Source: Eledone cirrhosa | Lineage: Eukaryota | Assembly (NCBI GenBank): GCA_964016885.1 | Contig: OZ024742.1 | Span: forward strand, 282,534,001-282,598,000 | Length of the DNA stretch: 64,000 bases | Direction: 5' to 3' | Shown here: piece by piece, positions 11,787 to 64,000 of the stretch | Numbering within the stretch: position 1 is the stretch's first letter | How the letters are laid out: each line of letters opens with the position of its first letter | Notes under the pieces: generated by a model | The model's database searches: none | What the model saw: only the letters and a program-made list of their open reading frames with translations | What the model was told of the DNA's origin: nothing | Made by a program: the position numbers and the translations under genes

Positions 11787-13694
11787 TCTATACTATAAAG
11801 CTGACGGCCGTATGTAAGTATCAAACTTTCCGCCAAATTTGCACCATAGATGTAACTTTTTCCAAGTAAGAAAGTGAGGGTATTTTTGTCTACTGAATTT
11901 TGTTAAAAGATTAAAGACATTATATAAATATTCACTTCTTTAAAATTTTCAAATGTCAACATTTCCGGGTATACGACATTCCTAACGTCTTCACGAACCA
12001 AAGTATCATCTTCCTGTTTTCTTTCGGTTGCAACGTTTTTCGAAATATTTACTTCTGCGTTCACAGATTGATTGTTTTAGTTTTAGAAGATCCCGTTAAA
12101 GGTGAAAGCAGCGATTCTTTGCTTAAACTTTAATCTGTTATTTTAATATATATATATATATATATATATATATATATATATATATATATATATATAAGGA
12201 AAAAGTATGACCCCGACGGCAGAGCTCAAGCCGTTTCGACGGCTATTTCTGGAGTCCAGAAATAGCCGTTGAAACGGCTTGAGCTCTGCCGTCGGGGTCA
12301 TACTTTTTCCTTTTTCCCACTCTACTACCCTAAGTATTGAGTACTCTGGTGCGTTATGGTCCTTCTGGTTCCTTACCACAATTCCTTTGGTATATATATA
12401 TATATATATATATATATAATTATATATTCGTGTACAGATATTTTTGCATACACAAAAACAAAATATAAACAAACGTATTTATTTCACGAAAGCACAGACG
12501 GCTTATCCTCATTGTTACTGCCGATATGCCACCCAAAAAGTCCTAGCCTGGCCGCAAGATCAGATTTTCCAGAAGAAAAAAATGTTACTAGAGCAACAGA
12601 GAGACTAAGCTTCGCGATTACCATCAACAAAGCTCAGGGTCAAACCCTAAAAGTGGCTGGCCTTCATCTGGGAAAACCATGGTCAATTGTATGTAGGATG
12701 CTCTAGGGTGAGCTCGCCAAAAAATCTCTTCATCTTTGCTCCCGAGAGCCGAACAAAAAATATTGTGTACTCTGAGGCTCTAACAATGTAATTTATGTAT
12801 TTTCTGTTACTTGGAATTTCCATTATGGTTGTACAAATTATTGTAAAGTTTGTTAAACCTTTATTGTTGTAACTAGCAATTTACTTTAACGTACTGGCTG
12901 AGAAAAGAAACCTACAATGAAAGAACATCTTAAAGTTTACCCAAGCCAAATGTTGTATTTATTAACATTTCTATCTTAGCAAGCTTACTGGCGCTTTAGT
13001 ATGGCATTCAATTCTCATATCGTTTTTGATTGATATGGTGCATATATCGCAGCTAATCATATGTTTTAAACATTAGATTGCTGATGTATATTGTACGACA
13101 GAATTAGCTGAAAAATATCTTGAATGAACAAATAAAAGAGATATAAAAGAGAGATGTTTGTCGGTTGGTTCCTTCGCGTGTCACACGAAAAAAACGAAAA
13201 GTGACAATCGGAAAGTATGTACAGGATTGGGATAAGAGTATATCCAGGAAATGTTATTGATTCTAATTTTATAACACCAAAGAAGAAGAAAGACATACCA
13301 CGTATGCTAACCAACCTGACTTCTATTTCTAGCAGGTTGGGAATCAACCATAAGGGATTCTCTCTCGAGTTCGTTGTCAGTGATGATCGTGTTTCGCGGC
13401 CTATGTCTCCGATTCCAACGGTGGTTTACACACACACACACACACACATACACACACACACGAACACTCACACAGGCACACACACGAACACTCACACAAG
13501 CACACGCACACACACACACACATATACACACACACACACACACACACACACACACGAACACTCACACACACACACACATATATATACACAAACACACACA
13601 AACATACACACACACACTGTAAACAAGACAATGCATTCAATACAGATGTTTTCTCTTCTGCCGTAACCTTGGCGAAGCTGAGTACCTCAGCTAG
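11787..13694 (+). mobile_element. Non-autonomous Helitron with helicase remnant
   Basis: A|TCTATACTATAAAG 5' end; 3' GCTGAG..CTCAGCTAG|T. 12595-12790 encodes RLSFAITINKAQGQTLKVAG and, frameshifted, HGQLYVGCSRV..KNIVY (PIF1-type helicase C-terminus). Confidence 0.8.
12196..12390 (+). mobile_element. Fold-back element family F1 in (TA)n (117-bp hairpin + tail), copy 1
   Basis: Near-perfect palindrome 12196-12312 centred on 12254. Homologous to 52518-52719, 59262-59462 and 32236-32350. Confidence 0.85.
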
Positions 13695-14109
13695 TGTATC
13701 AATAAAGAAGGTTATTGAAATCCGGCCTTCTCATGTTTTTCATTAAAGTACTTAACTCATTTCCAGTACCACCCACGAAATACCACATCTATGGAAAATA
13801 CAGATGGCGTTAACTGCTTTTGCTTTTTATAGCCCAGTCCGCTGAACGGATTGATTGGATCACAGCTACCTATTAGTTAAACCATACAACACAAAGCATA
13901 TATATATATATATATATATATATATATATGAGGAAGGGGGCATAAAATAAGAAAATGTGATATATATTAAAGTAATGCGGAAGTGGTAGTGAGTGATATA
14001 TATATATATATATATATATATATATACATATATATATATATATATATATATATATAAAATAAAATAAAATAAATAAGTCAAATGTTTAAAATTTGGCTTC
14101 GTTTATTAC

Positions 14110-14160
14110 TGCTATATATATTTCGGTGACAGCCATCTTTGGCTGTGACCTCTTCAGGCA
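14110..14160 (-). ncRNA. Minimal type-I hammerhead ribozyme motif
   Basis: Exact reverse complement of 14341-14391. Confidence 0.75.
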
Positions 14161-14340
14161 GTCCGAATTAGTGTGGTAGAGACGAGTACACATGTTGTTA
14201 TTTCACTGAGGAACTGGAATCATATGATTCCAGTTCCTCAGTGAAATAACAACCCAACCAGGAACTGGGTATATCAGAGTATTGACAAAGTTATACACCT
14301 CAACAACATGTGTACTTGTCTCTACCACACTAATTCGGAC

Positions 14341-14391
14341 TGCCTGAAGAGGTCACAGCCAAAGATGGCTGTCACCGAAATATATATAGCA
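14341..14391 (+). ncRNA. Minimal type-I hammerhead ribozyme motif
   Basis: tgc CTGAAGA ggtcacagcc-aaagat-ggctgtcacc GAAA tatata TA gca: 3-bp stem I, conserved core, ~10-bp stem II, palindromic stem III. Confidence 0.75.
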
Positions 14392-60808: not shown

Positions 60809-61392
60809 ACATACATACATACATATATACCTACATAACTATATACATATATACAGATGCGAATGTAGAATTTATTCAGATTTACCCATGTTACTACATT
60901 CATTAAAATCAAACGGTAAAGAACAAAACCAAACAACTCAATTCAAAATAATCCTTCAGTGAAAATATTATTCCACAGATCTTAAGTCCACGCCGTTAGC
61001 ATACAATATTTCCGTAGTTGATGTTTATTTCTCACTTTTGTCCTACTTCCTCTTCATCTATTTCCTCTTGTTTTCGTTTTTTTTTTTTCATTTTCTCTTT
61101 CTAATTCTTTTTTTATTTCTGTTGTTTTTTCTCTTCTTTGTTTGTTTGTCTTTTTGTTACAGATACTTTTATTCAAAACCCCTCACCAGCCACCTAAATA
61201 TTAACAACAATTTCGTCGACATCATCAGCGTTAGCAGAATCTGCGTTAACATCGACGTCGGCGCCATTACATCCATCGTTTCATATGTTTTGCACCTCTC
61301 ACTATTTTCCTCAACATTAACAGCAATGCCGTCGACAACATCGCCATTAGTAGATTGAACATCAATACTGATGTTACTGTAGGCGCCATAGT

Positions 61393-61910
61393 TGTGTGTG
61401 TGTGTATTTGTGTGTTTGTGTGTTTGTGTATTTGTGTGTTTGTGTGTTTGTGTGTTTGTGTATTTGTGTGTTTGTGTATTTGTGTATTTGTGTATTTGTG
61501 TATTTGTGTATTTGTGTGTTTGTGTGTTTGTGTATTTGTGTATTTGTGTGTTTGTGTGTTTGTGTGTTTGTGTGTTTGTGTGTTTGTGTATTTGTGTGTT
61601 TGTGTGTTTGTGTGTTTGTGTGTTTGTGTGTTTGTGTGTTTGTGTATTTGTGTGTTTGTGTGTTTGTGTATTTGTGTATTTGTGTATTTGTGTGTTTGTG
61701 TGTTTGTGTGTTTGTGTGTTTGTGTGTTTGTGTGTTTGTGTATTTGTGTATTTGTGTATTTGTGTATTTGTGTGTTTGTGTGTTTGTGTATTTGTGTGTT
61801 TGTGTGTTTGTGTATTTGTGTATTTGTGTATTTGTGTGTTTGTGTGTTTGTGTATTTGTGTATTTGTGTATTTGTGTATTTGTGTATTTGTGTATTTGTG
61901 TATTTGTGTG
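61393..61910 (+). repeat. 8-bp satellite (TTTGTGT[A/G])n
   Basis: Direct inspection. Confidence 0.97.
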
Positions 61911-63795
61911 CACGCGTGTTATATATATATATATACATATATACATATATATATACATGTATGTGTGTGTGTGTGTGTGTGTGTGTGTGTGTGTGTGTGT
62001 GCCTGCATGTGTGTATATACGCTTATGTGGACGCGTGAATGTTGTAGTGTGTCTGTCTCTGTGTGGTGTGTCTATATGTATGTATGCACACATGTATATC
62101 TCTATGTGTGTCTGTATGTGTGTGTGTGTGTGTGAACATGCGTGTGAGTACATGTGAGTTAAAGTGTGTGTGTGTGTCTGTCTGTATGTTTGTTTGTGAA
62201 AGTGTGTGTGTGTGTGTGTGTGTGTGTGTGTGTGTGTGTGTGTGTGTGTGTGTGAAAGTGTGTGCATGTATGTGTGTGAAAGTGTGTGTGTGTCTGTCTG
62301 TATGTTTGTTTGTAACAGTGTGTGTGTGTGTGTGTGTGTGTGTTATAATGAGCGTAGAAGCAACAGCAACAGCAACAACAACAACATAGCAATGTTTAAT
62401 GACTGCAGGTTTGAAACAACGTAAATGACCGCCGGTCTTTGTGTTTGCTTTCAATAGGCTTCCCTTTTTTTTTTCATCGTTGAATTAAATTTGTCCACAT
62501 ATGTTCGCTTTTGTATTGTATATTTCTGGTGGTGTTGTATACACCACTCTCATCTGCTCTCTCTTGATGTAGTATTCTTTCTCTCACCCCCACCCACCCC
62601 GCTCTCTCTCTCTCTCTATCTATCTATCTATCTATCTATCTTTTTCTCACTCTGGCTCATACTGCGTGTGCATATTAAATGTATATACATATATACATTT
62701 ATACATACATACATACATACATACATACATACATACATACATACATACATACATACATAAATATGCATATATATATATATGTATGTATATATATATATAT
62801 ATACATTTATCTTTCTTTCTGTCGCTTTCTCAGCGAGGAAAATTAACACAAGAGAATAATAGGATTAACGCTTCTATATCGTAGGAGAGTCTTAACGTTT
62901 CGAACGATAGTCCTTCATCGGTAGAGAGAAGGAGAGAGAAAAGAAAGCATAGAAGAATAGACTTAGGTAAGAATAGGAAGAAACGGGAAAAGACTTTTAC
63001 AAACACAATGCCCCAAATGTCGGTGTGCGTGTGTGAGTATATATATATATATGTCTTACTCGCACATGTATTCACCCAGCTTATACTGACAGAATAACCA
63101 TGTTGCTTGTGTTTCTTTCTATCTTCGGTTAGCTTTCCCCTGTGTTGTTTACTTGTCTCACTCGCTTTACGCGTTTCAATTGTCCTAATAACTTATTTTA
63201 GTTATTCTCGCACCAATGTGAGGTATATGATTTTTAATGCGATGAAATACCAATGATCGTTGGCAAATCACTGATGAGGGACTCATTTTATAACATGTTA
63301 TCCATGTACAACCATGCAGTATTCTTCTCCCCATATTTTTCACATATATATATTTATATATATATATATATATATATGTGGATATATATATATATATATA
63401 TATATATATATATATATATATATATATCTTCTATTATCGATTTTTTATCGTATGGTTGATTTTAGACTTGTTCTATGTGTGACGGTATTTTAACGATAGT
63501 TATAGCTCTGATTCATCTGAATTATTGAGCACTCTGCCGCTCATTTCGAATATTGTTTATCGTGAACTCGTGCGCCGATTTTTCGATACTCGATCTTTCT
63601 AATATTATATATATATATATATATATATATATATATATATATATATAATGGAAAATTTGAACAGGAACAACATATAAATATATATATATATATATATATA
63701 TATATATTAATAAAAGGAATTTCAACTTTGCCTGATTTACTCGTTTTATTTACAATCCTTTAAAATTTATAATGGTATTAGAATGAAATAGTATG

Positions 63796-64000
63796 GTAGA
63801 ATATTAAATGTTAAGTGTTAATTGAACAAGTACTTTCATGCTTTCGCAATCTTCAGGTTCATAATGTGTGGTGACAGTCAAGTTTGAAATTTTCAACAGT
63901 TGAAAATTGCAAACTTGACTGTCACCACACATTATGAACCTGAAGATTGCGAAAGCATGAAAGTACTTGTTCAATTAACACTTAACATTTAATATTCTAC
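63796..64000. mobile_element. Palindromic element with two divergent hammerhead motifs (extends to window end)
   Basis: Near-perfect palindrome centred on 63898; hammerhead motifs at 63823-63861 (-) and 63935-63973 (+). Confidence 0.8.
63935..63973 (+). ncRNA. Minimal type-I hammerhead ribozyme motif
   Basis: tgaac CTGAAGA t tgc-gaaa-gca t GAAA gtac TT gttca. Confidence 0.7.

Follow-up and report, generated by a model that had tools for sequence, protein, structure and literature searches.

Paired tailed and untailed arms in the hammerhead-associated fold-backs of the Eledone cirrhosa genome may reflect twin priming by Penelope-like elements

Penelope-like elements (PLEs) that carry an endonuclease (EN+ PLEs) have a distinctive insertion structure, passages of PMC3846280 describing head-to-head inversions with junction palindromes and an optional tail, and passages of PMC8557442 an inverted 5'-truncated copy, a tail on one side only and a bias towards (TA)n; for Drosophila Penelope, part of PMC2377424 reports inverted terminal repeats and a promoter in the pseudo-long terminal repeat (pLTR). 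According to passages of the first two papers, it is still unresolved how PLEs acquire their tandem and inverted ends. We analysed a 64,000-nt stretch of the genome of Eledone cirrhosa (assembly GCA_964016885.1, contig OZ024742.1, positions 282,534,001 to 282,598,000; hereafter the window), in which a first-pass annotation had noticed five families of fold-backs around hammerhead ribozyme motifs and had proposed that a guild of ribozyme elements shares an integration route with hairpin-primed or template-switch second-strand synthesis at (TA)n. The palindromes are almost certainly PLE-type insertions: their layout is the published PLE structure, not a new guild, and three of the families are debris of coding PLEs. 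Part of the proposal survives, namely a PLE-driven entry into (TA)n by unrelated hammerhead families, while the new guild does not, and the hairpin-primed step suits only a minority of junctions. On balance we favour an origin of the fold-backs by twin priming from opposite target strands over one by a single strand folding back.

The fold-backs have in common with EN+ PLEs, as passages of PMC3846280, PMC8557442 and PMC2377424 present them, the inverted 5'-truncated copy at the 5' end, in most cases head-to-head, the one-sided tail, the pLTR hammerhead, AT-rich or (TA)n targets, and parents with a reverse transcriptase (RT) plus, at the C-terminus, a GIY-YIG endonuclease. They differ in that tails reach 56-162 nt against the published 30-40, in that many copies are two short arms and nothing else, and in that the pairing of ends is here quantified as strict among classifiable cases. 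Already published for PLEs are the head-to-head inversion, the tail on a single side, the preference for (TA)n and the hammerhead in the pLTR; new here are the strict pairing of a tailed with an untailed arm, the finding that either arm can be the longer, the mostly near loop-less junctions at hot spots, and the presence of this scar on retrozymes.

Seed-based and blastn scans of the window located fold-backs at 12.2k, 14.1-14.5k, 34.1k, 35.9-36.8k, 38.6k, 52.5k, 55.1-56.4k, 59.3k and 63.7-64k, including all the places named by the first-pass annotation, and its five families (references F1, F14, F36, F55 and F63) indeed lack evident shared sequence, having no mutual blastn similarity at E 0.01. 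All seven junctions mapped in the window are divergent, as had been claimed, and the 52.5k copy is likewise divergent by reading. In an unbiased sample of 119 evenly spaced 10-kb stretches (1.19 Mb), the five families contribute 94 arms, and their direct junctions are divergent in 22 cases and convergent in none (two-sided p 5e-7), so that polarity is far from random; two convergent pairs were also found there, both with (TA)n in between. The association with (TA)n also holds: (TA)4+ is no more than 25 nt away from 70 of 76 3' ends in the sample, whereas the same is true of 8.2% of positions taken at random ((TA)n makes up 5.1% of the window and 4.4% of the sample). Inversion in every case, as originally stated, goes too far, since only 22 of ~72 sample insertions (31%) are folded. 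The density of about one per 8 kb likewise belongs to the window (8 in 64 kb), the sample giving one fold-back per 54 kb for these families, a contrast that is inflated by the families having been picked from the window. Extrapolation from the 22 in 1.19 Mb would give ~55,000 fold-backs of the five families in the 3.0-Gb genome. A strict family-free scan, which recovered just 4 of the window's 9 fold-backs, found in-arm hammerheads divergent in 9/9 cases, several of which belong to hammerhead families other than these. A looser de novo count of polarity, with 19 divergent, 11 convergent and 8 mixed cases, was discarded because it took in hammerheads lying as far as 400 nt beyond the arms. Further frequent hammerhead families, absent from the window, occur in sample stretches L151-L269, and several of them also form divergent fold-backs.

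The families had all been taken for non-coding elements, which is correct for F36 and F55 only. Judged by sequence, F1 (12.2k and 59.3k), F14 (14k) and F63 (63.8k) are truncated 3' ends of coding PLEs, running unbroken at other loci from DNA coding for RT and GIY-YIG. F63 directly follows RT and C-terminal GIY-YIG frames at six loci (L130, L134, L135, L137, L144 and L146), and its parent scored above the Pfam cut-off for GIY-YIG and just below it for RVT_1. The linker of this parent has the CX2-5CxxC pattern of Neptune-type PLEs and its C-terminal GIY-YIG has CCHH-like residues, a placement by motifs only that makes it a putative Neptune-type PLE. F1 and F14 extend upstream via long 3' untranslated regions into frames with a CxCX5C linker, CxxC and CxH and no CCHH, which is the endonuclease pattern given for the Hydra clade in section 11 of PMC8557442, and by this motif pattern their parents are probably Hydra clade PLEs. 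These parent frames are broken copies read as stop-to-stop pieces, none of them intact and all cut off before the N-terminal RT region, where the RWK and DKT motifs of the Hydra clade would lie; the evidence for F14 consists of thumb and endonuclease pieces only and that for F1 of pieces, and a Pfam search of the F1 parent piece matched no family. Hammerhead and (TA)n insertion are further traits shared with the Hydra clade as passages of PMC8557442 describe it, the F1 hammerhead being different in its U3-A8 core and long stem II, and most copies ending inside this hammerhead.

A sixth family, F34, derives from the terminal part of yet another coding PLE, and the final codons of that PLE lie inside the window. 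An optional 3' tail on one insertion end is present in F1, F14, F63 and F34, and the inverted 5'-truncated head-to-head copy occurs in the EN+ PLE families, among others at the locus L146, a coding palindrome with the tail on one arm; a terminal piece upstream of the frame, possibly a partial tandem (pLTR), was found in L144 only, no search for it having been made for the others. The idea that F1 is the end of a Naiad element, a PLE with an N-terminal endonuclease and no canonical hammerhead, was rejected, as the endonuclease is C-terminal and longer F1 copies have a whole hammerhead. A search for GIY-YIG gave 10,595 first-look candidates, of which 150 scored, so that PLEs are abundant in the genome. 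An open frame of 938 codons was also observed in a PLE of Neptune type (L131, L132 and L136, the last having it as an inverted pair), whose 3' end matches none of the five families.

By structure, F36 and F55 are non-LTR retrozymes. F36 is a non-coding tandem unit of 591 nt with one hammerhead per unit and 1326 candidates in the genome, the best 40 matches having 100% rounded identity, and it is 99-100% identical between loci; F55 is a non-coding tandem unit of ~460-480 nt, again with one hammerhead per unit, and has 1209 candidates. Their arms hold up to ~5 units and range in length from ~50 to 2800 nt. Like the animal non-LTR retrozymes of PMC7229834 and bioRxiv 10.64898/2026.07.22.740005, they are dispersed over many loci as tandem repeats that code for nothing and have a single type I hammerhead in every unit. 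They differ from these in having 3' ends at two fixed places, in being inverted head-to-head and in targeting (TA)n; a scar of this kind is not described in the passages covered of either source. The entry of animal retrozymes into new loci has so far been inferred mostly from phylogeny, and the occurrence of the same scar on retrozymes as on PLEs points to PLE enzymes as the movers. No RNA run was among the sequencing runs listed with these units. Contigs with the F36 unit occur in two other sequencing runs, one closing on itself at 591 nt, as a tandem array would also do, and a joint in three Hi-C reads of another organism is too weak to use.

The anatomy of the fold-backs was studied in 112 non-redundant cases (224 arms) from all loci, most of which had been chosen by similarity search. 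Every family has two 3' ends lying 36-162 nt apart, this distance being the tail length. A tailed arm is paired with an untailed one (a long with a short end) in 84/84 classifiable fold-backs, out of 104 not at a locus edge, and in 16/16 of those from the evenly spaced sample; F34, which stood outside the set on which the rule was framed, conforms in 7/7 readable pairs, its other rows being confounded by an internal duplication in the F34 reference. The tail does not determine which arm is longer: in F1, F14 and F63 the arm reaching further 5' is the untailed one in 19 cases and the tailed one in 16, with 32 ties (n=67), and the untailed arm exceeds its partner by up to ~440 nt. At least four tailed arms are little more than the tail, starting at the short-end site without overlapping their partner (L181, L284, L002 and L220). 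Diagnostic subfamily sites are concordant between arms in 579 cases and discordant in 61, against the ~269 discordant ones expected from independent templates, so that one RNA or one source locus is required, and an origin of the arms from unrelated RNAs or random RNA pairs is rejected; the arms diverge by 0.3-5.6%. The single discordant F63 site (7/9) is part of a quasi-palindrome, where the same mutation may arise repeatedly. Inverted target duplication was rejected as a general trait, with one clear case (the F14 flank in the window) in 98 fold-backs checked.

The 5' ends behave differently in the two kinds of family. In the coding families they fall within 6 nt of one site in 72/108, 15/40 and 19/24 arms, the F63 query starting at its hot spot and thus excluding shorter copies, and in the unbiased sample 35/51 F1 5' ends lie at reference positions 757-776. 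Retrozyme 5' ends scarcely cluster (largest cluster 7/32 and 2/20). A TATA-like word is found ~31 nt upstream of the F63 stop and, weaker, ~30 nt upstream of that of F1; going by consensus motifs, we take the F1, F14 and F63 hot spots to be initiator-like. Where both arms extend to the hot spot, the junction has 0-2 unpaired central bases in 24-26/36 cases (24/36 if two F63 entries are left out in which a quasi-palindrome of the element itself had been taken for the junction). Microhomology overlaps occur at 55/112 junctions, and hairpin-primed second-strand synthesis fits a minority of junctions only. The F1 hot spot lies within loop II of the hammerhead (the full F1 end is seen in L283 and L287); RNA initiated at this point would be missing the ribozyme's 5' half, and self-cleavage would be left to read-through RNA.

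In LINE-1 twin priming, two target nicks prime two cDNAs whose joining by microhomology produces a 5' inversion, the two parts being non-overlapping and the second primer annealing at variable places. The two-nick, two-cDNA, microhomology-joined inversion that we propose here is the same, with the difference that there are two fixed starting sites and that one and the same 3' sequence is usually present in both arms. The GIY-YIG endonuclease of a PLE would nick both strands of its (TA)n target and one cDNA would be primed from either nick, the tailed arm beginning at the far start site of the RNA and the untailed arm at the near one. Joining of the 3' ends of these cDNAs, whether through short microhomology or directly end to end, would necessarily yield a head-to-head palindrome. 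With one cDNA per nick and one per site, the joined product should be head-to-head, have one tail and follow no rule as to the longer arm, all of which is seen. In the coding families the stop shared by the cDNAs would be the predicted 5' end of a transcript from the pLTR promoter, and both cDNAs running off one such RNA end would account for the shared stop and the loop-less joins; tail-only arms that do not overlap their partner are predicted by twin priming on one RNA. For the retrozymes a circular or multimeric template may have been copied in trans, from which multimeric arms without a fixed stop would be expected. According to passages of PMC11167929, both strands of AT-rich DNA are cut and extended by a purified PLE protein, and reverse transcription starts at two RNA sites bracketing the tail, hammerhead cleavage being dispensable.

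An alternative with published backing, which we hold to be unlikely, is self-priming or snap-back, in which antisense RNA or, as the first-pass annotation suggested, the first cDNA folds and extends on itself, and an endonuclease trims one arm while the other keeps its tail. Antisense RNA was invoked in this way for the head-to-head palindromes of rotifer PLEs in passages of PMC3846280, and passages of PMC8557442 attribute the tail to endonuclease resolution. The microhomology at about half of the junctions would suit it, and the inverted copy of the F14 flank beside (TA)n in the window shows that folding back can happen at such sites. The hot-spot junctions are difficult to reconcile with it, as 0-2 unpaired bases are too tight for a strand to prime itself, and in many copies both arms end at the same base. 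Without later trimming the tailed arm should moreover contain the other, whereas the untailed arm is longer in 19 of the 35 unequal cases, and in vitro the tail traces back to a pair of sites at which RT starts on the sense RNA (PMC11167929, in the passages concerned).

Several observations nonetheless count against twin priming. The allele concordance of the arms fits snap-back as well as it does two cDNAs from one RNA or locus, and some junctions use the stem II hairpin of the ribozyme with its loop kept, just as snap-back would (L042, with a 25-nt overlap). As many as 20/104 fold-backs are unclassed, with one or both ends elsewhere, and loci were often chosen with tail-containing queries, which leaves untailed-untailed pairs under-sampled there. 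Tail-only arms are scarce (4 clear and 2 at locus edges, among 224 arms), 20/112 junctions have more than 10 inserted bases, and the extra C/G bases that might be cap marks are present at only a handful. No TATA-like word lies upstream of the F14 hot spot, and no coding partner for F36 or F55 was found among 50 GIY-YIG loci.

It is improbable that fold-backs formed rarely and were then amplified, as palindromic master copies transcribed and retrotransposed whole. Such copies would explain the concordant arms and the same junction letters recurring in 5-6 F1 and 4 F63 copies, but the junctions are highly diverse, both in where they lie and in which bases are inserted; those that recur represent the simplest way of joining at a common stop, and the F36 and F55 arms vary widely in length. 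An artefact of assembly or library preparation, or a pair of independent insertions in one (TA)n tract, is highly improbable, for although neighbours in one tract do occur (the two convergent pairs), the arms differ from each other in sequence, have their ends at two sites specific to the family and are always joined 5' to 5' without (TA)n between them, and chimeras or chance neighbours would yield neither the 22:0 polarity nor the 84/84 end pairing.

The twin priming reading can be extended to an obligate two-site process with one tailed and one untailed cDNA per inverted insertion, in which short copies would be run-offs at a capped pLTR start and retrozymes, multimers included, would be inserted by PLE machinery; this extension is tentative, and we are slightly more inclined to doubt than to accept it. 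If true, the origin of the inverted pLTR would be decided against antisense self-priming, and the movement of animal retrozymes would have direct genomic proof. The strict end pairing, the shape of the junctions and the scar on retrozymes bring the mechanism within reach of a test, and the ~55,000 fold-backs amount to a large natural data set with sharp predictions for the existing in vitro PLE system. Our literature search, mainly of open-access publications, found no paper applying twin priming to PLEs, a model that PLE reviews of 2005 and 2006 may hold, and none on the retrozyme scar or on these families, related families or junction data being possibly listed in the supplements of PMC8557442 and PMC11167929.

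A type I hammerhead scan of the 1.19-Mb sample gave 85 matches against 1 in reversed sequence. The ribozyme does not set the geometry of the fold-backs. Cleavage as the source of the 5' ends was rejected, the cut site coinciding with the arm end in 1/224 arms. The initial description of fold-backs around hammerheads applies in full to the 5/9 window fold-backs that have a whole core; the three F1 copies have the 3' half only and the 38.6k copy has none. Type I hammerheads were found by descriptor in F14, F55 and F63, in F36 with a U3-A8 core and a long loop II, and also in F34; in the EN+ PLE families they lie close to the 3' end, as judged from sequence and folding. Longer F1 copies elsewhere have the whole ribozyme, likewise of the U3-A8 kind, a covariation that PMC3088659 reports to be active. 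The short palindromic helix III is the same as in the minimal, dimer-type PLE hammerheads described in passages of PMC4209133, and the dimer type would explain why the minimal motifs, F14 excepted, fold no better than shuffles. An Rfam scan of the window listed no hammerhead among the best 150 of 296 matches, none of which reached the gathering score; the top ones were microRNA models on simple repeats and palindromes. For annotation this means that palindromes which score as microRNA or MITE-like hairpins belong under PLE debris.

The individual copies in the window are as follows. The first F1 fold-back has an untailed arm at 12197-12253 (minus strand) and an arm with a tail of ~77 nt at 12253-12387 (plus), flanked by (TA)n at 12146-12195 and 12391-12418; it comes from the 3' end of the presumed Hydra-type parent, with only the 3' half of the hammerhead. 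F14, assigned to the same type of parent, has an untailed arm at 14052-14219 (minus) with an internal jump and a whole type I hammerhead at 14157-14113, and a tailed arm at 14220-14541 (plus) that starts at an 8-bp palindromic hot spot and has a hammerhead core from 14344. Outside F14, the flank at 14630-14691 recurs in inverted form as a 62-bp copy at 13931-13992 (minus), which none of the other fetched loci contains; these mutually inverted copies enclose the insertion and its (TA)n tracts. F34, overlooked in the first-pass annotation and common among the fetched loci, spans 33601-34093 (minus), comprising the last codons and 3' end of its coding PLE with a hammerhead core at 33820 and a tail of ~19 nt, and is accompanied by a short inverted piece at 34121-34148 (plus) that ends in (TA)n.

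The tailed arm of the F36 retrozyme (35945-36626, minus) consists of one 591-nt unit plus 91 nt, with a hammerhead from 36264 that has a U3-A8 core and a long loop II; its untailed arm (36625-36776, plus) is without the 5' half of the core. At 38556-38843 lies a member of an F55 subfamily (untailed arm 38556-38675, minus; tailed arm 38667-38843, plus) that ends short of its hammerhead. F55 itself has an untailed arm at 55116-55481 (minus), its core at 55415 having C3 changed to G, and a tailed arm at 55502-56411 (plus) with two tandem units of ~460-480 nt and hammerheads at 55592-55622 and 56076-56106. A diverged F1-type fold-back (52517-52718), ~80% identical to the F1 reference, has its tail on the right arm, and a further F1 fold-back occupies 59265-59466 (tailed arm 59265-59402, minus; untailed arm 59400-59466, plus). 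F63, derived from the 3' end of the putative Neptune-type coding PLE, has an untailed arm at 63703-63900 (minus; hammerhead 63856-63828) and a tailed arm from 63896 to 64000 (plus; hammerhead 63940-63968) that runs beyond the window to its 36-nt tail. Near 32324 on the minus strand there is a solitary 3' half of an F1-like hammerhead, with no inverted partner detected.

Other repeats surround these insertions. Broken LINE copies with endonuclease and RT pieces, presumably L1/Tx1-like, occupy 1-7665 and 39448-43532 on the minus strand; an RT frame of 687 codons at 27913-29976 is taken to be RTE-like, and a remnant at 12560-12790 resembles the end of a PIF1-type helicase and is presumably Helitron-like. 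A 12-nt unit is repeated ~350 times in a 4-kb array at 17219-21343, and 24108-25036 is an array of a 14-nt unit. A different repeat is present twice, at 30994-31294 and 60492-60808, the copy at 60.8k being shortened and ending in a 20-bp fold-back without a hammerhead. Finally, a SINE-like repeat of ~185 nt occurs at 8393-8694, 16616-16764, 48697-49051, 49596-49745 and 53654-53822, and is in tandem at 48.7k.

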